The notes: generated by a model not told the origin, from the sequence alone. Positions 1,820 to 60,382 are shown, counted from the stretch's first letter. The stretch is DNA of 64,000 bases from Candidatus Latescibacterota bacterium (GCA_965200315.1 OZ241362.1:4512001-4576000); one strand, 5' to 3'. Made by a program: numbers and translations.

Positions 1820-3502
1820 TCAACTGCCCGTCCTAATTTCCACGAGGGGTAGCGGCGCGGAGTCGTGCGCGCCGCGATCGGCAACCATCTCGGCAAAAGC
1901 GACCGGCACCATGCTAACGCGCAAATCCCGCGCGCCCCGCGACTGCACTGGCTGCTCCAAGAACGACGCCATGGCACTCGGAGTGAACACGAGGTGATCA
2001 ATGGCAAAGTCGTTCACCAATGCCTCCAGTTGGCCAACGTGGCCGACCACCGGGCGACCAGCCAGCGGGCAGCCCCGCTGTTGGGAACCATCTCCCACCA
2101 CGCCGATTAGATCGCAGTGGACCATACCCGTGCTCTCTAGCTGATCGACGAAATGCACGGCAACCGCATCCGTTCCCACCAGCAGGGTGCGCAATCGGCC
2201 TTCGCGGCCGCGCTGGTGCAAAAACCAACGCACGACGAAGCGCCAACCGGCGATTAACAGCAAGTTGCAAAACCAAGCCGCGACCACAGCTAGCCGTGAG
2301 AAATTGTAAGCCTTAAAGAAGAACACCAGCATTGCGATGCAGGCAAACCCCAGCGTCACCCCCACTACCGACCACGCCACCGAGTAGCGACGGCGGTCGT
2401 ACAGGCCCGACGCGTAAAACGCCAACAGCCAAACCAAGGTCGAAGCACCGTACACAGCAGCCCATTGCAAATCCGAATACGGAGGCGGCACCAGCCAGCG
2501 CGTCGGCTGGACGTCGAGGCCGAAGAGATTGCCGACTTGCTCAATGCGGTAGATAAAAGGCATCAACTCTTGGTGGTAGCGCACCGCTAATCCCAGCTTC
2601 AAGCCACAGAGCACTAAGCCGGCGTCGATCAGCGGCATAGCCAAGGTGCGCCCCGCCCGGGCGAAGAGGCGGAACGTTCCGTGTAGCGCAATGCCCACCT
2701 GCAAAAGCCACAGCGGGAAGAAGCGATAGCGCCGCGCCATGTGCTTGTTGACAAAAATCGACATGGCTTGGCTCTTGCGATAGAGGATTTTTAGCGGCGT
2801 CCCTCGGCCACTCTCGCCGCGAAAGTGAATGATTGAGGTCGTTGGCACGTAGTAGATCTTCCAGCCGGCTTGGTGGAAGCGATAGCACCAGTCGATGTCC
2901 TCGCCGTACATGAAGTAGTCCTCGTCGAGCAGGCCGATTTGGTCCATGGCCGCTTTGCGCACCATCATGCACGATCCAGATAACACCTCGACTTCAGCCG
3001 TTTGCTCGGGATCGAGATACGTCATGTGGTAGTGGGCGATGAGCGGGTGCTTGGGAAAGAAGCGGCTCAGGCCCGACATCTTGCAGAAGGCAGCCAATGG
3101 CTTGGGAAAGCCGCGGCGGCTGTCGAGCTGCAAGGTGCCGTCCGGGTCGAGGATTTTGCACCCGCAGGCCCCGGCTTCCGGGTGCGCGTCCAAGAACTCT
3201 ACCATCGTGTGCAGCGCATCCTGACGCACAATGGTATCGGTGTTGATCAGTAGCGCATATTCTCCGACTACCTGCCGCAGGGCTACGTTGTTGCCGGCTG
3301 CAAAACCCACATTGGCCGCGTTGCGGATCAGCTTCACTTGCGGGAACTCCTCGGCTACCATGTCAGCGCTGCCGTCTGCCGAGGCATTGTCAACGACGAA
3401 TATCTCCACTTCTAGCCCTTCGGCTGCTGAGAGCACAGAACTCAGGGCCTGTCGGGTCAGGTCGCGGGTATTATAGTTGAGGAAGACGACGCTCAGTCGC
3501 AC
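1820..3502 (-). CDS. GT2 glycosyltransferase fused to a membrane region and a Rossmann-like (CoA-binding) domain
   Basis: VVDNASADGS, NVGFAAGNN, LINTD, YFMYGEDIDWC; C-terminal TM helices plus LLVGT...IGVV...GRPVVG as in sugar-transferase N-terminal regions. Confidence 0.85.
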   Translation of the reverse strand: MRLSVVFLNYNTRDLTRQALSSVLSAAEGLEVEIFVVDNASADGSADMVAEEFPQVKLIRNAANVGFAAGNNVALRQVVGEYALLINTDTIVRQDALHTMVEFLDAHPEAGACGCKILDPDGTLQLDSRRGFPKPLAAFCKMSGLSRFFPKHPLIAHYHMTYLDPEQTAEVEVLSGSCMMVRKAAMDQIGLLDEDYFMYGEDIDWCYRFHQAGWKIYYVPTTSIIHFRGESGRGTPLKILYRKSQAMSIFVNKHMARRYRFFPLWLLQVGIALHGTFRLFARAGRTLAMPLIDAGLVLCGLKLGLAVRYHQELMPFIYRIEQVGNLFGLDVQPTRWLVPPPYSDLQWAAVYGASTLVWLLAFYASGLYDRRRYSVAWSVVGVTLGFACIAMLVFFFKAYNFSRLAVVAAWFCNLLLIAGWRFVVRWFLHQRGREGRLRTLLVGTDAVAVHFVDQLESTGMVHCDLIGVVGDGSQQRGCPLAGRPVVGHVGQLEALVNDFAIDHLVFTPSAMASFLEQPVQSRGARDLRVSMVPVAFAEMVADRGAHDSAPLPLVEIRTGS

Positions 3503-32579: not shown

Positions 32580-33127
32580 TTATGCTTCTATGCCGATGAT
32601 GACCAAAGGAACCGCTGGCACACCACGGCCTTGCCTGATTACATTGTACAGCTCCCCCTCGTAGTAAGCCACCCCGGAACTCATTTGCGACTGTAATATT
32701 TTCATTGGCAATATCTCAATACCCACATCGATCTGATCGCCAATTCGATAGCTACTCGATCTTTTATGAAATCAGTTTGATTGTAGCTAAAAATCGGCTC
32801 ATGACCTGATTGTGCGATTTCCTTTTTCTGAATTTCAGGAGGCATGGCAAGTGTTGTTCTTATTAATCTCTCATCTTTAGTCACCCAATAGTTTACGCGA
32901 CTTTCATACCATCCCTTCGATTCTAGCAGCCTCTTAAACGCTCCATTCATCTCAACAGGACTGTACAGTAAGCGACCTTGCATGGTTTTCTCTTTTGATA
33001 CTTTTGTTTTGCAAACTTCACCATCTACTTGCTCAATGACTTCCTCTATCTCTGTCCAGAGATGTGGATGATGAACGAGTAGATACTCAAGTCCATTTAG
33101 GTGAGAGTACCTTTCAACTATCTTCAC
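32580..33127 (-). pseudogene. BglII/BstYI-family type II restriction endonuclease, internally deleted and frameshifted
   Basis: N-part YSHLNGLE...SYNQTDFIKDRVAIE; C-part continues in another frame GDQIDVGIEILPMK...MSSGVAYYEGELYNVIRQGRGVPAVPLVIIGIEA* ending at 32580. Confidence 0.85.
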
Positions 33128-34077
33128 GTTGCCTCCCTCTTTTCTTTAATTAAAGATAGCTGATCGGACTCTCTCTCTTGCGATCCGAAAGGCGACACGG
33201 CTAATTTATTATTTTTTGCTTTAGGATCGTATTTAGGTTTATTCATAGGCCTTGTCTTCAAGGTTCCGTTTATTGCACTTTGCACCCTGTCTCGGGCGAT
33301 ATCGACGTACTTTTCTTCTATTTCTGCGCCGACGCCGCGGCGGCTGTTTTTTATTGCAGCAATAATAGAGGTTCCGGTCCCCAAGAATGGATCCAAGACC
33401 CAGTCACCTTCATTAGTCATAGACAAAACAAGTCGCTCGATTAATTCGACTGGGAACTGGCAGGGATGTTGGGTTTTTTCTACGTGATTGCTTTTGACAT
33501 TTGGAACGTCCCAGAGATCACCCGGATTTTTCCCAAGTGGATTACAAGAATACTGCCCGGCTCGCGGACCCTTAAAATACTTCTTCGCCGGATATTTCTG
33601 TGGAACCCGCACCGGGTCGAGGTTGAAAATGTAGCCTTTTGTTTTTTTAGTAAACCAATTTATTGTTTCGTAGCGACCCGAAAACCTTCTCGAACAGTGC
33701 AGGCCGTGTTCAAAGTGCCAAACGATTCTGTTTCTCATAACGAGATGTTGCTCTTGAAATATCGGAAAGAGAATGGTATCGAGGGGTATAATTGAGCCGT
33801 CGTTTACGTAATTGCCCACTTGCCAACAAATACTACCAGAATGGGCGAGAACGCGGCCGCATTCCTTTACGACCGCTCTTTGTTGTTCCATGTACGTTTC
33901 AATATCAAGTCTTTTTTCGTATTCCTTACCTATGTTGTACGGAGGCGATGTAACGACTAATTGGATCGAATTATCTGGAATGGACGCGAATAAGTCCATG
34001 CAGTTGCCATGAAAAACTACGGCCCGTTCCTCGCCGTCAAATTCTTCCGTTATTTTTTTAGCTAAGCCGAACATCAT
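33124..34077 (-). CDS. Beta-class amino (N4-C/N6-A) DNA methyltransferase
   Basis: VTSPPYN precedes HPCQFP and VLDPFLGTGTS; low-GC island with the REase; alternative start at 34140. Confidence 0.93.
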   Translation of the reverse strand: MMFGLAKKITEEFDGEERAVVFHGNCMDLFASIPDNSIQLVVTSPPYNIGKEYEKRLDIETYMEQQRAVVKECGRVLAHSGSICWQVGNYVNDGSIIPLDTILFPIFQEQHLVMRNRIVWHFEHGLHCSRRFSGRYETINWFTKKTKGYIFNLDPVRVPQKYPAKKYFKGPRAGQYSCNPLGKNPGDLWDVPNVKSNHVEKTQHPCQFPVELIERLVLSMTNEGDWVLDPFLGTGTSIIAAIKNSRRGVGAEIEEKYVDIARDRVQSAINGTLKTRPMNKPKYDPKAKNNKLAVSPFGSQERESDQLSLIKEKREAT

Positions 34078-34187
34078 TTTAGTATTACCCCATTTTCTGT
34101 CGCATGTAGCTGGAGATCGACGGAATAGCGTCTCAATCACAAGATCGTTCTGCGTCTCATCTTCCGCAACTTCGCTTCCGTCCGTCC

Positions 34188-56452: not shown

Positions 56453-57220
56453 ATGAACATCCTAGATCTTTTCAAGCTCGACGGCCAGACGGCGCTGGTC
56501 ACTGGGTGCCGCCGCGGCATCGGGCGCGGGTTCGCGCAAGCATTGGCCGAGGCCGGAGCGGATATCGTCGGCGTCAGTGCCTCACTTGAAGCAGATTCCA
56601 AAGTCGGCCAAGACATTGCCGACCTCGGCAAGCGCTTCACAGGATACGCCTGCGATTTCAGCGACCGGTCGGCCGTTCGCGCTTTCGTCGAGCAAGTCAA
56701 CGCCGAAGTTGGCCCAATCGACATCCTCATCAACAACGCCGGGACCATTCGGCGCGCTCCGGCTGAAGAACATGAAGACGACGACTGGGACCACGTCATT
56801 GAGGTCAACTTAAACGCCCAGTTCGTGCTGGCGCGGGAATTCGGCAAGCAGATGCTCTCTCGCGGCGCGGGCAAGATCGTCTTCACCGCTTCGGTGCTGA
56901 CCTTCCAAGGCGGGATCACCGTGCCGGGCTACGCCGCGGCCAAGGGCGGGATCGGGCAGTTGACCATGGCGCTGGCCAATGAGTGGGCCGGTCGCGGGGT
57001 CAACGTCAATGCCATTGCCCCCGGCTATATCGCCACCGACAACAATCAGGCCCTGCGCGACGATCGAGTGCGCAACGAGCAGCTACTGGTGAGAATCCCA
57101 GCGGGCCGGTGGGGTGCGCCAGACGACCTAAAGGGCGCGGTGGTGTGGCTGTCGTCGCGGGCGGCTGACTATGTGCATGGGGCTATCGTGATCGTCGATG
57201 GCGGGTGGATGGGGCGGTAG
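56453..57220 (+). CDS. kduD: 2-dehydro-3-deoxy-D-gluconate 5-dehydrogenase-like SDR
   Basis: TGCRRGIG, NNAGTIRR, ASVLTFQGGITVPGYAAAKGG, NAIAPGYIATDN. Confidence 0.88.
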   Translation: MNILDLFKLDGQTALVTGCRRGIGRGFAQALAEAGADIVGVSASLEADSKVGQDIADLGKRFTGYACDFSDRSAVRAFVEQVNAEVGPIDILINNAGTIRRAPAEEHEDDDWDHVIEVNLNAQFVLAREFGKQMLSRGAGKIVFTASVLTFQGGITVPGYAAAKGGIGQLTMALANEWAGRGVNVNAIAPGYIATDNNQALRDDRVRNEQLLVRIPAGRWGAPDDLKGAVVWLSSRAADYVHGAIVIVDGGWMGR

Positions 57221-57222
57221 TT

Positions 57223-57420
57223 GTGGAAACGTCCGACATTTTGGCATTCTGGGGCAAGACGCTGCGTGGTTGCGGAAATTCTTCGGAGACCGCAGACGGG
57301 CAACCTAGCTACAAGCCCGTCTTACATCATTTAATGGATGTCGCCGCCGTTGCCCTGCGATGGCAGCAATTGAATCCTGCCCGTCTTGAGCGCGAGGCCA
57401 GTGTGCTTGGCCAAGCTCGC
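57223..57420 (+). pseudogene. cas3: 5' stub of type I-E cas3 (start of HD domain)
   Basis: FWGKT...YKPVLHHLMDVAAVA resembles the Cas3'' N-terminus (WxK...H..DVAAVA); stops after ~65 codons, directly before the CRISPR repeats. Confidence 0.75.
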
Positions 57421-57430
57421 GTCTTTACTT

Positions 57431-57569
57431 GTGTTCCCCGCACACGCGGGGATGAACCGGTTTCAAACTCAAATCCTGCGTCATTGGCAGCGTGTTCCCC
57501 GCACACGCGGGGATGAACCGGGCACGGTCAAACTCGGTGTCCGTCAGGTCCTGTGTTCCCCGCACACGC
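57431..57569 (+). CRISPR. Type I-E CRISPR remnant: 2 full repeats, 1 truncated repeat, 2 spacers
   Basis: GTGTTCCCCGCACACGCGGGGATGAACCG at 57431-57459 and 57492-57520; first 17 nt at 57553-57569; two 32-nt spacers. Confidence 0.93.
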
Positions 57570-57698
57570 CGTTGGGCGTGAGCAACCAACGTTTGATCGG
57601 GTTTTGATTTTGGGCACTAAACGGCCATTTCGATCTAAAAATATCTTGTAAAAACAAAAAGTTACGGCTATTTTCAAACGGTTGTTCGAGATTTGATT
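57568..57698 (+). repeat. Tripartite motif copy A (gene-end remnant, box, AT-rich core, box)
   Basis: GTTTGATCGGGTTTTGATT 57591-57609; TAAAAATATCTTGTAAAAACAAAAAGTTA 57636-57664; GGTTGTTCGAGATTTGATT 57680-57698. Confidence 0.85.
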
Positions 57699-57780
57699 TC
57701 CGTACAGCAAGAAGAATATCCATGAGCAACATGGCGCAATCCGGCCACACCGCCCACCAGACAGAATCGCAGACAAACCA

Positions 57781-59244
57781 ATGAACGGCCCCCGCATCCT
57801 CGCGCTGATCGACGACCTGCTAGCCGCCCCTGCCGAGACCTCTTGTGTCGAGTTCAAGGAGAACAACTTTGCGCCCGCTGCGATTGGCAAATACATCTCG
57901 GCTCTCGCCAATGCCGCTGCGCTGGCAGAGCGAGATTTCGCCTATCTGCTCTGGGGGGTGCGGGATTCCGACCGCGCCATAACCGGTACGCGCTTTGAAC
58001 CGGATGCGGTCAAACACCAAGGCCAACCGCTGGCATTTTGGCTGACGCAGCGGCTCAACCCGGATGTCGCGTTCCGGTTTCAGGTTGTGGAGCATCCGCA
58101 AGGCCGGCTGGTTTTGCTCGAGATTCCCGCCGCAACCACTAGTCCGGTGGAGTTCGACCGCACGGCATATTGCCGAATCGGCTCGGCAACGCCGCGCCTG
58201 TCCGATTATCCCGACCGCCAGAAAGCACTCTGGAGCAAACTCCAGCCTTATCTCTGGGAAAGCGGCATCGCCGCACCGTTTCTCACCGACGATGCCGTGC
58301 TGGCCCGCATTGACTGTGCGAGCTATTTCGAGCTTATGGAGCAACCTCTGCCCGTCAATCCGCGAGGTATTCTGGAGCGATTGAGCCAAGACCAAATAAT
58401 CGCCCCGGATGTCGGTGGCCGCTGGAATATCACCAATCTGGGCGCGATTCTGTTTGCCAAGCGCCTCAATGAGTTCGATTCGCGGATTGCGCGTAAGGCG
58501 GTGCGCTTCACGGCCTACGCTGGAAAGGGCCGTGCGGATACAGTAACTCACCGGCACGACGAACCCCGCGGTTATGCCGTTGGCTTTGCGAGGATTGTCG
58601 ATTATATCGACCGGCTGTTGCCGCGCAACGAGCAAATCGACCGAGTCTTTCGCATTGAGCAACCGCTGTTTCCGCCAGTTGCCCTCCGCGAGTTGGTTGC
58701 CAATGCGCTCATTCACCAAGACATGACCATTACCGGGGCCGGGCCGTCCATTGAGCTCTTCAGCAACCGGCTGGAGATCACCAATCCGGGCAAGCCTCTA
58801 GTTAGCCCCAACCGCTTTATTGACTCTCCGCCGCGCTCGCGGAACGAAGCACTTGCCGCATTCATGCGACGCATGAAGTTGTGCGAGGAGCAAGGCACAG
58901 GTATCGACAAGGTCGTGGCAGCGGTGGAGGTCTATCAATTGCCACCACCGGATTTTCGCGTACAGGAAGGTGGGATAGAGGCGACAAGTGCGGTTCTTTT
59001 TGCGCCGCGCCGGTTTGCGGCAATGACGGTTGAAGAGCGCGTCCGGGCGTGCTATCAGCACGCCGTGTTGAAGTTCGTGAATGGAGAATTGATGAAAAAC
59101 AGCAGCCTGCGAGCGCGTTTAGGCATAGATACGCGAAATGCCGCACAAGTGTCGCAGGTAATCCGGCGAGCGCGAGACCAGCAACTTATCAAAGTCGCCG
59201 ATCCCGAACGCCCACAATCGGGCTACGTGCCGTTTTGGGCATGA
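57781..59244 (+). CDS. Schlafen/AlbA_2 + HATPase_c_4 (RecG C-terminal-like) + winged-helix protein
   Basis: ETSCVEFKEN, ISALAN, YLLWGV.D, Y.RIGS (AlbA_2); ALRELVANALIHQD, RLEITNPG, RNE.LA..MR...CEE.G.GIDK; C-terminal wHTH ending YVPFWA. Confidence 0.88.
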   Translation: MNGPRILALIDDLLAAPAETSCVEFKENNFAPAAIGKYISALANAAALAERDFAYLLWGVRDSDRAITGTRFEPDAVKHQGQPLAFWLTQRLNPDVAFRFQVVEHPQGRLVLLEIPAATTSPVEFDRTAYCRIGSATPRLSDYPDRQKALWSKLQPYLWESGIAAPFLTDDAVLARIDCASYFELMEQPLPVNPRGILERLSQDQIIAPDVGGRWNITNLGAILFAKRLNEFDSRIARKAVRFTAYAGKGRADTVTHRHDEPRGYAVGFARIVDYIDRLLPRNEQIDRVFRIEQPLFPPVALRELVANALIHQDMTITGAGPSIELFSNRLEITNPGKPLVSPNRFIDSPPRSRNEALAAFMRRMKLCEEQGTGIDKVVAAVEVYQLPPPDFRVQEGGIEATSAVLFAPRRFAAMTVEERVRACYQHAVLKFVNGELMKNSSLRARLGIDTRNAAQVSQVIRRARDQQLIKVADPERPQSGYVPFWA

Positions 59245-59362
59245 GCGGCCCAAGTTTGATCGGGTTTTGATTCTGAGCGCGAAGCGGAGGTTATGGGTGT
59301 TAAAAATATCTTGTAAAAACAATAAGTTATAACTTTGCTCAAAGTTTGACCGAGGTTTGATT
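59229..59362 (+). repeat. Tripartite motif copy B
   Basis: GTTTGATCGGGTTTTGATT 59254-59272; TAAAAATATCTTGTAAAAACAATAAGTTA 59301-59329; GTTTGACCGAGGTTTGATT 59344-59362. Confidence 0.85.
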
Positions 59363-59386
59363 CCACCTTTTACACGAGGATATCTC

Positions 59387-60382
59387 ATGATCCGCATGGC
59401 GCAATACGGCACCAAGCACGGTCACGCGGCCGGCAAACTCAAGGCCATGCTCAGCAACCCCGAGGTCGAAGTCGTCGGCCTGTACGAACCCGACGCCGAG
59501 CGCCGCCGGCAACTTGCCGACGACGAACTCTATCGGCAGGTCCGCTTCTTAGACAGTGAGGAGGAACTGCTCGGCGATAGGTCCATTGTCGCGGTTGCCT
59601 CTGAGGGCCGCAACGACGAGAGCTTGGACCAGACCGAGCGCATCGTCCAAGCCGGCAAACACGTGTGGTACGACAAGCCGGCTGGAGACGATTGGGCGCA
59701 GTGGCAACGGGTCGTAGCAGAGGCGCGGGCTGCCGATCTGCAAGTGCAAATGGGCTTTATGCTGCGCTACCATCCCGGCTTCAGCCAAGTCGCACAGTGG
59801 GCGCGGTCAGGGTTTTTGGGCAACGTCTATTCGGTGCGCGCCCACATGTCCACCAACATCACGGCGGCCGGGCGCGAAGTAATCGCCGCCGGGCACCACG
59901 GCGGCATCTTCTACGATCTAGCTGGGCACATGCTCGACCAAGTGGTGTGGATTTTGGGGCGGCCCGAGAAGGTGACGGCCTTTCTGCGCAACGACACCGG
60001 CGTCGTGCCCGCGTTTCAGGACAACACGCTCGGGGTTTTTGAATACGAGCGGGCCATGGCTTGGGTCGATATTGCGGCGATGGAGCCGCAGCCAATGGCG
60101 CGGCGTTTTGAGGTCTATGGCGAGCGCGGCAGCGCGATTCTGCTAGAGCCTTTTGAGCCGGGCCACGCCATCCGGCTCTGTCTGACCCAAGCGGCCGACG
60201 GCTATGCGGCGGGCGAGCAGATGGTGCCTTTTGCAGGAATTTCGCGGCAAGGACTCTACGAACTCGAACTGGCGTCCCTTATAAGGGTGCTCAAGGGCGA
60301 ACACGGTCCAGACCGCTCGCTCAGCCACGAACTCCTCGTGCAGGAGACCTTGCTACGCGGGACCGGGCTTATTGCGGGCTGA
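59387..60382 (+). CDS. Gfo/Idh/MocA family oxidoreductase
   Basis: AGKHVWYDKP, QMGFMLRYHP, GGIFYDLAGHMLD. Confidence 0.9.
   Translation: MIRMAQYGTKHGHAAGKLKAMLSNPEVEVVGLYEPDAERRRQLADDELYRQVRFLDSEEELLGDRSIVAVASEGRNDESLDQTERIVQAGKHVWYDKPAGDDWAQWQRVVAEARAADLQVQMGFMLRYHPGFSQVAQWARSGFLGNVYSVRAHMSTNITAAGREVIAAGHHGGIFYDLAGHMLDQVVWILGRPEKVTAFLRNDTGVVPAFQDNTLGVFEYERAMAWVDIAAMEPQPMARRFEVYGERGSAILLEPFEPGHAIRLCLTQAADGYAAGEQMVPFAGISRQGLYELELASLIRVLKGEHGPDRSLSHELLVQETLLRGTGLIAG

Follow-up and report, generated by a model that had tools for sequence, protein, structure and literature searches.

Why does a Schlafen-type gene of Candidatus Latescibacterota bacterium carry the same short DNA module in front of it and behind it, and what reads this module? 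The gene lies in the window that we analysed, i.e. a stretch of 64,000 nucleotides (GCA_965200315.1 OZ241362.1:4512001-4576000). All coordinates given below refer to this window, and all features lie on its plus strand. The module consists of two boxes around an A+T-rich core. We found that it is part of the 3' flank in one subfamily of Schlafen-GHKL-HTH genes of prokaryotes, and that the candidate site right after the stop codon is, judged from the sequences, probably recognised by the protein's own DNA-binding tail.

The gene (57781-59244) encodes a Schlafen(AlbA_2)-GHKL ATPase-C-terminal HTH protein of 487 amino acids, which is called 'MloB' or 'ATP-binding protein' in some NCBI records. 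Its Schlafen domain matched SLFN_AlbA_2 (Pfam PF04326; E 6.3e-14, 53 bits at a cutoff of 25.3), and its GHKL-type ATPase domain matched HATPase_c_4 (Pfam PF13749; E 1.3e-21). No NCBIfam model matched the protein, and PADLOC gave one weak partial match, to an Argonaute-associated model (E 2.7e-4). Foldseek matched the AF2 model (pLDDT 95.8) to 3lmm, to SLFN13, SLFN11 and SLFN14 (E 5e-5 to 1e-4) and to SLFN5 (5e-4), while the GHKL part matched histidine-kinase CA domains and PDK. Among 8000 candidates scored, 5827 homologues were found at E≤1e-3. Across 116 aligned sequences, E19 and E24 of the Schlafen domain (with K26) were nearly invariant, and the GHKL residues E304, N308 and G372 were invariant. 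An acidic pair of catalytic type, E19/E24, is thus present, with the spacing of the published nuclease-dead mutant sites (E15A/D20A in the available part of PMC13056530).

The C-terminal tail is predicted to fold as three helices and two strands (DSSP: H417-433, H440-447, H451-466, E470-472 and E482-484). Winged-helix proteins were among the top Foldseek matches of the isolated C-terminal model (pLDDT 81), of which the best was not significant (E 0.35), and the wHTH families in Pfam matched this region at below-cutoff scores only. The C-terminus ended exactly in YVPFWA in 59 of 120 homologues, and in near variants of it in most of the others.

The domain order, from SLFN_AlbA_2 through a PF13749 GHKL ATPase to a short C-terminal helical tail, is that of the pSlfn HisKinase(GHKL)-HTH proteins, or 'Schlatpase' plus HTH. 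These relatives occur in defence contexts and in type I restriction-modification (R-M) operons, whereas the window gene lies outside any R-M operon, and no hsd genes were found among the window ORFs scanned. Bacterial Schlafen nucleases have recently been shown to be phage-defence effectors, with fused domains as sensors. According to the accessible portion of PMC13056530, HisKinase-HTH proteins make up 19.2% of 5,930 pSlfn proteins. The accessible portion of the preprint 10.64898/2026.05.29.728809 describes type I R-M operons that contain Schlatpase as a stand-alone gene, reports an HTH in >90% of the tails that were examined in these proteins, and attributes the ATP-dependent tetramerisation of a related protein to the GHKL domain. 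We found no mention of a conserved DNA element beside these genes in the accessible portions of these two sources, and no published description of the module in the available literature on bacterial Schlafen proteins and type I R-M.

A repeat search and pairwise alignment revealed direct repeats of ~180 bp on both sides of the gene. Each copy spans the gene's last codons, the box-core-box module and the first codons of the downstream oxidoreductase. Homology runs from about 57569 in copy A and 59231 in copy B (the P-F-W-A-stop codons) to at least 57745 and 59410 (the oxidoreductase start codons). Repeat families D2, D3 and D5 share an offset of 1663-1665, and alignment A1 agrees with it. The extent of ~110 bp given in the first-pass annotation was thus too short. 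The anatomy that it described inside the repeat was borne out. Box 1 (57591-57609 and 59254-59272, the latter 9 nt past the stop codon) is identical at 19 of 19 positions, and each box holds two TTTGAT-type hexamers, or half-sites, 11 bp apart. The A+T-rich core of 29 nt (57636-57664 and 59301-59329) agrees at 28 positions, and its first 22 nt (57636-57657 and 59301-59322) are identical. Box 2 starts 89-90 bp after the start of box 1. In copy A it is degenerate (57680-57698; 15/19 relative to box 1) with its second half-site intact, and in copy B it lies 24 nt ahead of the next ATG (59344-59362; 16/19). A Gfo/Idh/MocA oxidoreductase gene (59387-60382; identified by Pfam) follows the module of copy B. 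The patterns of box 1 and the core start had no further copy in the 64-kb window, and none of 100 shuffles matched them.

Conservation between the two copies is uneven along the repeat. The 177-column homologous block is 72% identical, with longest identical runs of 22 and 19, and a run-length permutation test (20,000 permutations) gave P=0.019 for the longest run and P=1.5e-4 for both runs. Uniform decay of identity had been named beforehand as the mark of a neutral duplication, and the decay proved non-uniform, with conservation differing per element.

To survey the lineage we scanned genome contigs with a degenerate box pattern, so that the loci sampled are those with matching boxes. This pattern yielded 72 loci. 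The same locus as in the window was present at 22 of them, on 15 contigs (13 labelled Latescibacterota and two from one MAG labelled Gemmatimonadota). Eight of these contigs carried the gene, 86-93% identical in amino acids to the window gene, and had modules both before and after it. In related contigs the oxidoreductase at the equivalent place was 90-95% identical in amino acids to that of the window. Hence, the bracket in the window is not a private duplication. No lineage copy of the gene is without a neighbouring module, upstream or downstream (upstream only in L063), and the same 17 nt of box 1 stand in each of the 28 copies aligned. Modules also occurred alone. In one Latescibacterota genome an orphan module, its boxes perfect, lies between uvrD/pcrA and gatC, and no copy of the gene lies closer than 2 kb; in two other genomes the module stands ahead of the oxidoreductase and the gene is absent. 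Among the 50 non-lineage loci, L020 (Solibacteraceae) encodes a homologue with 65% identity, with box 1 four nt past its stop codon and a second box 78 bp further on. The remaining 49 box matches, of which ORF maps were made for 10, are about as many as expected by chance (~35 at equal base frequencies).

That the motif accompanies the 3' ends of the genes of this family, and would recur downstream of homologues in other genomes, was confirmed in other phyla. A two-box module begins 1-21 nt past the homologue's stop codon in Acidobacteriota, Rhodobacterales, Providencia, E. coli, Burkholderia, Cupriavidus, Aliarcobacter, a cyanobacterium and Acidovorax. We applied a repeat test to 17 loci, namely the window, L020, the L011 paralogue and 14 loci of homologues from plasmids or E. 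coli. In eight of them the downstream region holds a direct repeat of 13-26 nt that was reached by none of 200 shuffles, and in another five, including the window, weaker repeats occur at the same place and spacing; the downstream repeat was absent from four, and the upstream regions of the 17 loci gave nothing comparable. Three homologues (37-38% and 24% identity) had no module. Apparent boxes beside L011, a distant Latescibacterota paralogue, were noted by eye but gave P 0.135 in the repeat test, and we dropped them. Among 5426 E. coli genomes the module occurred in exactly four, the same four that hold the gene. In PLSDB the Rhodobacterales module was found once per record in 36 records, adjoining the gene where rows were compared. 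The first-pass annotation had treated the bracketing as a feature of the system. It is a by-product peculiar to this lineage: loci outside Latescibacterota have a single module, on the downstream side.

The boxes are under selective constraint. Box 1 was identical at 17 of 17 positions between the window and both the Acidobacteriota homologue and three Rhodobacterales plasmids, whereas third codon positions in the adjacent 100 codons were saturated, at 26-35% identity, in the same four distant comparisons. In 25 lineage copies the mean majority fraction was 0.99 for box 1, 0.90 for the core and 0.92 for box 2, while linker 1 reached 0.82 and the leader 0.76. Within the boxes, the TTG/TTTG cores were invariant and the 5-nt spacers variable. 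Furthermore, the box sequence varies in step with the protein subfamily and with how the presumed recognition helix begins, a covariation that covers few subfamilies and is confounded with phylogeny. TTTGAT boxes are paired with the helix start R/Q-N-A-A/S-Q, GCTTGAT boxes (Providencia, E. coli) with K-N-Q/S-A-Q/M, and GTGTTTTAACGC boxes (PCC 7002, Acidovorax) with K-T-A-T.

The spacing between the boxes is quantised in steps of about 10.5-11 bp. The 13 spacings, five of which were taken from weak repeats, were 66, 66, 78, 78, 87, 88, 89, 89, 90, 97, 98, 99 and 99, and they were phased with a Rayleigh R of 0.87 at 10.5 bp (nine lineages, P=3e-4, seven periods tried). The earlier suggestion that the site is looped fits this helical phasing, as does wrapping. 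An IHF-like element with one mismatch, as proposed in the first-pass annotation, was found in both window cores (57652-57664 and 59317-59329), where the window-wide rate of one-mismatch matches to the consensus supplied by that annotation is 0.07 per 150 bp. The Acidovorax module matches the consensus perfectly and the other copies have at least two mismatches, while modules of E. coli, Paracoccus and Burkholderia share a related core (TTGAAAACAA...).

Searches for sigma-70-like promoters gave none in the window region, L076 and L082 and one in the E. coli core, which was no better than in shuffles. A Bacteroidota-type -33/-7 promoter, which by eye fitted copy B of the window alone, was dropped. 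An Rfam scan of 57000-59600 (E≤1) gave no match, and the repeat search found direct repeats alone within the module, with no inverted pair. RNAalifold on eight diverse copies proposed a G-U pairing of box 1 with box 2 (-4.65 kcal/mol) with no covarying pairs, and this structure was rejected.

We infer from these patterns who binds the module and what binding does. The reading that we prefer, and that we hold to be about evenly balanced between right and wrong, is that the module would be the cognate four-half-site operator of the Schlafen-GHKL-HTH protein. The C-terminal winged-helix tail would read the half-sites, and an oligomer would occupy both boxes, 66 to 99 bp apart in helical-turn steps around an A+T-rich IHF-like core, on one face of bent DNA. 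Because the module has four half-sites, a tetramer is plausible. The operator would overlap the start of the next transcription unit, i.e. the oxidoreductase gene in the window and, where relatives lie in type I R-M operons, hsdR or hsdS. The protein would thereby control downstream genes, and its own locus would titrate it. In the window, the upstream module most likely supplies the gene's own promoter and operator. The gene order in L080 and L082 is hsdM-hsdS-X-hsdR, with hsdR following the module; hsdS follows it in L079, and hsdR remnants do so in L076. Since several loci lack an intact gene after the module, control of downstream genes cannot be its sole role.

The module is a concrete candidate ligand for the HTH tail, with a chromosomal example in E. 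coli, and through this protein hsdR or hsdS may be controlled at the level of transcription in some type I R-M operons. The constructs described in the accessible portion of PMC13056530 included 100-150 bp from upstream of the gene to provide the native promoter, and constructs lacking the downstream 150 bp may miss part of the system.

Several known systems resemble parts of this arrangement. In type II R-M systems the C protein is a small HTH protein that stands alone, and the sites that it binds are inverted repeats in front of its gene. The likeness to C proteins and their C-boxes, an HTH protein in an R-M operon with repeated sites ahead of a restriction gene, holds if the module controls hsdR or hsdS. 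However, the candidate binder is a 487-aa multidomain nuclease-ATPase and not a small stand-alone HTH protein, and its sites are repeated in direct orientation and follow the gene, either within type I operons or as orphans, instead of being inverted and upstream. The anticodon nuclease PrrC is an RNase-type abortive-infection effector with an NTPase domain, encoded within the EcoprrI type Ic hsd locus. Like the protein in L080 and L082, it is an NTPase-bearing RNase effector between hsd genes, but the protein folds are unrelated, and we know of no comparable DNA module flanking prrC. P1 parS is an IHF-bent two-arm nucleoprotein site, and OmpR/PhoB-type operators are direct repeats. The module shares with them half-sites one turn apart, arms around an A+T-rich IHF-like centre and a conserved phase, but it has no partition or response-regulator protein, and its IHF match is imperfect in most copies.

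Instead of controlling genes, the module could act as a DNA tether or scaffold, in which the four phased half-sites hold the nuclease oligomer inactive on the chromosome beside its gene, until degradation, displacement or remodelling of this DNA, for example by phage, frees the RNase. We consider this unlikely. Intact boxes persist where there is no downstream gene to regulate: in L086, 930 bp separate the module from the next annotated gene, and in L074 and L075 IS elements follow it. A tether also agrees with the retention of at least one adjacent module by every lineage copy of the gene, even the upstream one alone in L063, and with the near invariance of E19 and E24 and the invariance of E304 and N308 in the 116 sequences. 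In the available parts of the two sources, related Schlafen proteins are trigger-activated tRNases (PMC13056530), and oligomerisation controls a related Schlafen protein (10.64898/2026.05.29.728809). However, the capacity of a single site is one complex, and since one chromosomal site holds one complex, a tether would need tight autoregulation too. Modules just ahead of hsdR or hsdS in R-M operons are explained more simply by gene control, and orphan modules occur without the gene. The more specific version, in which the module is a docking site that keeps a Schlafen tRNase tetramer off, seems slightly less likely again. Four HTH tails would bind the four phased half-sites beside the gene, and loss, occupation or distortion of this DNA by phage would free the nuclease. 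If so, the HTH would serve as sensor domain in the second most common bacterial Schlafen class, and would have as its ligand a stretch of the cell's own DNA, encoded in cis, that acts like an antitoxin made of DNA.

The boxes might instead act at the RNA level, as binding sites or a decoy for the Schlafen/AlbA-type RNA-binding domain within the transcript, in the 3' UTR of the gene or the 5' UTR of the one that follows, in the style of a repeat-RNA antitoxin. Box 1 lies 1-21 nt past the stop codon with no terminator between, and is therefore probably transcribed; box 2 lies 9-46 nt ahead of the next start codon; and some homologues are named 'RNA-binding domain-containing protein' by NCBI. We nevertheless regard an RNA element as improbable, as the module has no conserved fold, no covarying pair and no Rfam match, and a spacing that follows the DNA helical repeat has no obvious meaning in RNA. 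In type III toxin-antitoxin systems, tandem head-to-tail RNA repeats lie upstream of the toxin gene. No such array is present here: two boxes, with 47-82 nt of non-repeated sequence between them, lie downstream of the gene.

It is quite improbable that the boxes serve a regulator of the host, or are promoter elements with no relation to the Schlafen protein, and merely hitch-hike with the gene. The gene-less orphan modules before gatC and before the oxidoreductase would suit this explanation. So would the core, which is common to subfamilies with differing boxes and therefore indicates a universal core reader such as IHF or RNA polymerase. Against a host reader, the 17-mer of box 1 is kept across Latescibacterota, Acidobacteriota and Alphaproteobacteria solely beside this gene, the box type follows the protein subfamily, and gene and module are linked in four of four E. 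coli genomes.

The first-pass annotation also offered a cassette attachment site, i.e. a recombination site of a mobile gene cassette. Gene and module do occur in unrelated contexts across phyla, relics consisting of last codons plus module were left behind, and long diverged direct repeats flank the gene in plasmids L073 (~100 nt) and L075 (~190 nt, 85%), with serine recombinase genes nearby in three plasmids. However, the boxes are repeated in direct orientation, and no hairpin is predicted. For the paralogue the right edge lies 10 nt past box 2, for the main gene it lies past oxidoreductase codon ~17, and the left edges are of several different kinds. The module lies outside the flanking repeats of L073 and L075, and recombinases are absent from the Latescibacterota loci and from this part of the window. 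Features of integron attC sites are likewise missing, with no inverted hairpin repeats in the module and no integrase among the window ORFs scanned. With direct repeats, no consistently adjacent recombinase and junctions that differ between cassettes, this suggestion has no support, and we regard it as very improbable.

A neutral local duplication or assembly artefact without function is hardly credible: copy A is indeed partly a relic with a degenerate box 2, but conservation is uneven (P=1.5e-4), the module is found again on 15 related contigs and outside the phylum, and the same junctions appear in an independent assembly. The latter, RKRN01000181 (L054) from a relative, has the same junction of CRISPR repeat and relic with different spacers, and since it was assembled separately, misassembly is excluded.

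This junction marks the origin of copy A: an earlier cassette left it as a relic, joined to a CRISPR repeat that is itself truncated. Its left edge is formed by a relic of mloB-type last codons (57569-57581; P-F-W-A-stop with a 2-nt deletion), and the relic TTTTGGGCGTGA also precedes gene-less module copies in other genomes. The alignments around this last-codon relic agree with the earlier proposal that a gene copy once stood upstream. The proposal had included a GCCG ahead of the codons; the codon relic stands, but its 'GC' is part of the truncated CRISPR repeat. At the other end, repeat D5 and the alignments revealed a relic of the oxidoreductase 5' end (57722-57784). It is now an ORF of 20 codons, whose TGA overlaps the Schlafen ATG (ATGA), and its last ~35 nt are the Schlafen gene's own leader. 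By tblastn, oxidoreductase codons 1-15 occur at the equivalent position in the CBDCDC contig L033. An older cassette would thus have been lost in the window lineage except for its final codons, its module and the initial codons of the oxidoreductase, and the gene is bracketed by modules as a result. The first-pass annotation mentioned neither the oxidoreductase relic nor the CRISPR-Cas remnant next to copy A.

The element that abuts copy A has the regular identical repeats and unique spacers of a CRISPR array. This remnant array (57431-57569) consists of two perfect 29-nt repeats (at 57431 and 57492), 32-nt spacers and a third repeat cut off after 17 nt (57553-57569), with a period of 61 bp. 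From the length and shape of the repeat, and a weak Cas3e match, we take it to be type I-E-like. Full arrays of 14-28 near-identical repeats occupy the equivalent position in eight of the 15 related contigs. A relic of the cas3 5' end (57205-57430; HD-domain N-terminus) is joined directly to the CRISPR repeats. Its matches were weak and below the cutoffs (Pfam Cas3_HD, E 7e-4; PADLOC Cas3e, E 2e-3), and it is 69% identical in amino acids to a fragment at the equivalent position in JAJEFJ010000096. The Schlafen gene has a decayed CRISPR-Cas locus on one side and a sugar-metabolism gene on the other.

The Schlafen gene (57781-59244, + strand) encodes 487 amino acids, with an SLFN_AlbA_2 domain at residues 19-137 followed by a GHKL ATPase domain (PF13749) at residues 319-399. 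The first-pass annotation had described a motif of ~110 bp on either side of this gene. Both copies of this module, in which two boxes of paired half-sites enclose an A+T-rich core, were found in place: copy A at 57591-57698 and copy B at 59254-59362. Box 1 is identical in the two copies (19/19), with no further occurrence in the window. The copies also agree over the initial 22 nt of the core (28/29 over the 29-nt core), and box 2 differs from box 1 at three positions in copy B and at four in copy A. The repeated segment extends further than the proposed ~110 bp, as repeat families D2, D3 and D5 of the window have a common offset of 1663-1665 bp, and the alignment runs from the gene's last codons (P-F-W-A-stop) through the motif and a leader into the opening codons of the next gene.

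After copy B, this next gene is a Gfo/Idh/MocA oxidoreductase gene (ATG at 59387). After copy A, there is a relic oxidoreductase start, a 20-codon ORF (57722-57784) whose stop overlaps the Schlafen ATG; the resulting ATGA could reflect translational coupling or accident. To the left of copy A lies a cas3 HD-domain fragment (57205-57430; weak matches). These ~75 codons from the 5' end of cas3 run directly into an array remnant that ends at 57569. The remnant comprises two perfect copies of a 29-nt CRISPR repeat, 32-nt spacers, and a third repeat that breaks off after 17 nt, where it meets a relic of the last codons. We take the CRISPR-Cas locus at 57205-57569 and in relatives to be type I-E-like; in the window it has decayed. 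The remaining window is ordinary chromosome with cell-wall, sulfatase and sugar genes.

Genome contigs were scanned for exact matches to one degenerate box pattern, keeping 2-kb flanks. In total, 72 loci were found, of which 22, on 15 contigs, lay in the same chromosomal neighbourhood as the window. Thirteen of these contigs are labelled Candidatus Latescibacterota and two come from one Gemmatimonadota-labelled MAG. Their oxidoreductases are 90-95% identical to that of the window, and the upstream SDR is 93-95% identical (four contigs with flanks reaching the SDR), so that the window most likely belongs to this lineage. These loci typically run SDR, type I-E-like CRISPR-Cas genes and array, module, Schlafen gene, module, oxidoreductase, with 14-28 CRISPR repeats at the position of the window's remnant. 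Modules bracket the gene on eight of the 15 contigs (86-93% amino acid identity, one frameshifted), while one contig begins within the gene. OZ244897 has the upstream module only; the downstream one was cleanly deleted, leaving 26 bp between gene and oxidoreductase. A distant paralogue (36-39% identity, identical Pfam domain set) occupies the bracket on two contigs, and two others have no gene and a single module before the oxidoreductase, once with a last-codon relic ahead of it. On OZ244028, a module with perfect boxes lies elsewhere, between a UvrD/PcrA helicase gene and gatC. This orphan module (L014; OZ244028.1, ~1995-2110, minus strand) has boxes 89 bp apart and a strongly diverged core (tree branch 0.68) though both boxes are perfect, and no Schlafen gene was found within 2 kb.

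When 28 copies were aligned, box 1 was invariant over 17 nt. Across 25 lineage copies the majority fraction averaged 0.99 in box 1, 0.92 in box 2, 0.90 in the core, 0.82 in linker 1 and 0.76 in the leader. The left edges of upstream copies vary, with relic last codons after unrelated sequence, a CRISPR repeat, or an edge directly at box 1, but every one lies just left of box 1. The right edges lie after oxidoreductase codon ~17 for the main gene and 10 nt after box 2 for the paralogue. Copies A and B share 92-96% identity in most genomes and are mixed in the tree, which suggests exchange between copies; in the window they are ~70% identical over the same stretch.

The main result is that the module also follows the Schlafen gene in other phyla; it recurs past the stop codon of homologues there, bearing out the earlier proposal that it is tied to the 3' end of this gene family. 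Outside the lineage, one of the 50 loci with the box pattern has a homologue (65% identity, two in-frame stops), in Solibacteraceae (L020; CAZCPL010000035.1, 560-1996), where box 1 lies 4 nt past the stop and a second box 78 bp further. These in-frame stops and a frameshift in CBDETK (L043) indicate that the gene is decaying in some genomes, with the adjoining boxes intact. Querying PLSDB with tblastn placed the protein in 104 plasmid records, and 13 of them were retrieved for comparison, along with one E. coli chromosome. Three Rhodobacterales plasmids (64-66% identity) carry the exact 17-mer 10-12 nt past the stop, followed 98-99 bp later by a near-copy. Another box type, with GCTTGAT half-sites 11 bp apart and repeats at 78 and 97 bp, occurs in Providencia (48%) and E. 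coli, and Picosynechococcus pAQ3 and Acidovorax (41-42%) have a third type in common, with a repeat at 66 bp. Weaker repeats, 87-89 bp apart, occupy the same position in two Burkholderia species, Cupriavidus and Aliarcobacter. No downstream repeats were found after the Allorhizobium and Rhizobium homologues (37-38%) or a BREX-embedded homologue (24%). Across these loci the spacing between the two boxes ranges from 66 to 99 bp.

The repeats were tested uniformly at 17 loci only, with 200 shuffles each. At eight loci none of the 200 shuffles equalled the direct repeat found downstream (13-26 nt), five including the window had weaker downstream repeats (P 0.015-0.125), and four, among them the paralogue locus L011, had none by this test. 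Regions upstream of the gene gave repeats of at most 12 nt. Apparent boxes belonging to the L011 paralogue itself were dropped, since the repeat test gave no support.

Several comparisons point to a function of the module at the DNA level. Box 1 is identical (17/17) between the window and four distant loci, while third positions of the adjoining 100 codons are only 26-35% identical between the same loci. Among 60 TTTGAT-type box instances the TTG and TTTG half-site cores are invariant and the 5-nt spacer varies. Box-to-box spacings (66, 66, 78, 78, 87, 88, 89, 89, 90, 97, 98, 99 and 99 bp) are in phase at a period of 10.5-11 bp (R = 0.87, nine lineages, P = 3e-4, seven periods tried). The core is alike across box types: E. 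coli, Paracoccus and Burkholderia have a TTGAAAACAA-type stretch, and the window has TTGTAAAAACAA. Its IHF-like element has one mismatch in both window copies and matches perfectly in Acidovorax.

The AF2 model of the Schlafen protein (pLDDT 95.8, 116-sequence alignment) matches the uncharacterised multidomain protein 3lmm, Schlafen N-domains and GHKL kinases. Residues 417-487 are predicted to form three helices and a two-strand hairpin, with the conserved Y-V-P-F-W-A tail as the last strand. When this C-terminal part was modelled alone, no PDB match was significant, and winged-helix proteins ranked highest. The third helix starts with R/Q-N-A-A/S-Q in proteins with TTTGAT boxes, K-N-Q/S-A-Q/M with GCTTGAT boxes and K-T-A-T with the third box type, in a small sample confounded with phylogeny. 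Where counts could be made, gene and module proved tightly linked: in E. coli they occur in the same four of 5,426 genomes. The Rhodobacterales module occurs once per record in 36 plasmid records, starting ~4 nt past the protein match (rows compared by eye), but these plasmids are near-identical and therefore provide little independent evidence of linkage.

The best-supported reading of these sequence data is that the C-terminal HTH of the protein would have the module as its cognate DNA site. The arrangement of four half-sites, as two phased pairs around a bendable core, would suit contact with both boxes by an oligomer, perhaps a tetramer. ATP-driven tetramerisation is described for the GHKL domain of a related protein in a preprint (10.64898/2026.05.29.728809), which calls the Schlafen-GHKL pair 'Schlatpase', reports an HTH in >90% of the tails examined and places stand-alone Schlatpase genes within type I R-M operons. 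Bacterial Schlafen proteins are phage-activated tRNases, and HisKinase-HTH fusions make up 19.2% of them (PMC13056530); a further recent paper also bears on the family (PMC13462974). We found no mention of the DNA module in the literature consulted on bacterial Schlafen proteins.

The module fills the stretch between the stop codon and a point 9-46 nt ahead of the following start codon. In this position it would be the regulatory region for the transcription unit that follows, and an operator role is therefore favoured; in Latescibacterota the upstream copy would give the Schlafen gene the same control over itself. At four loci the module directly precedes a type I restriction gene: the order is hsdM-hsdS-X-module-hsdR in pAQ3 and Acidovorax and hsdR-hsdM-X-module-hsdS in Aliarcobacter, and in Providencia it precedes hsdR remnants. 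Elsewhere a helicase fragment, a large unknown protein or IS elements follow, or the next 930 bp carry no annotation. A profile search of the window ORFs found no hsd genes. The window does contain a solitary N6_N4 DNA methylase gene (33124-34140, - strand; Pfam E 4e-56), for which the scanned ORFs nearby offered no obvious restriction partner.

A tether or scaffold, instead of a transcriptional operator, deserves real weight, because sigma-70-type scans of the window region and other modules found no recognisable promoter, modules persist where the downstream gene is gone, and orphan modules exist. An RNA-level element is a weaker explanation, as the consensus fold of the module is weak with zero covariation and Rfam gave no match. 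A recombination site, or sites for a host factor only, are likewise weaker explanations of the module. Neutral duplication with uniform decay disagrees with the uneven identity of the 177-column homologous block (72%), whose longest identical runs, 22 and 19, have a joint P of 1.5e-4 by permutation.

Misassembly, the other alternative raised by the first-pass annotation, is contradicted by the related, independently assembled RKRN01000181, in which truncated CRISPR repeat and relic meet at the same junction, with different spacers and none in common. Moreover, copy A of the window joins copy A of RKRN01000181 in the module tree (support 98/96), so that the arrangement is inherited. We infer that the CRISPR array was at first followed by a cassette of gene, module and oxidoreductase. 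A second gene, together with its 35-nt leader, would then have become attached after oxidoreductase codon ~17, by tandem duplication or Campbell-type recombination, which yield the same topology. Later, the first gene was probably lost by a deletion reaching from inside a CRISPR repeat to a point 12 nt short of the gene's stop, and most of the CRISPR-Cas locus was presumably also lost, leaving the cas3 5' fragment and two spacers.

Cassette-style rearrangement around the Schlafen gene seems common and repeated. On two Rhodobacterales plasmids, long and diverged direct repeats, none of them containing the module, also lie on both sides of the gene: ~100 nt from the 5' end of a downstream helicase-like gene in L073 (NZ_CP086949.1), and ~190 nt with 85% identity from the 3' part of an upstream HTH_13 gene in L075 (NZ_CP065895.1). 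Within the lineage, the SDR-oxidoreductase interval is a variable spot (L011/L012 on OZ242361.1, L013, L045) that, besides CRISPR-Cas and Schlafen genes, contains small nucleotidyltransferase (Polbeta/NTP_transf_2) and DUF2442 genes. The Gemmatimonadota-labelled MAG has two versions of the locus, JAPPEG010000253 and JAPPEG010000290 (L038/L039, L013), only one of which includes the Schlafen gene. Gene identity indicates that this locus is of the Latescibacterota type; the downstream modules of the two contigs are identical, and the pair looks like a strain mixture in one bin.
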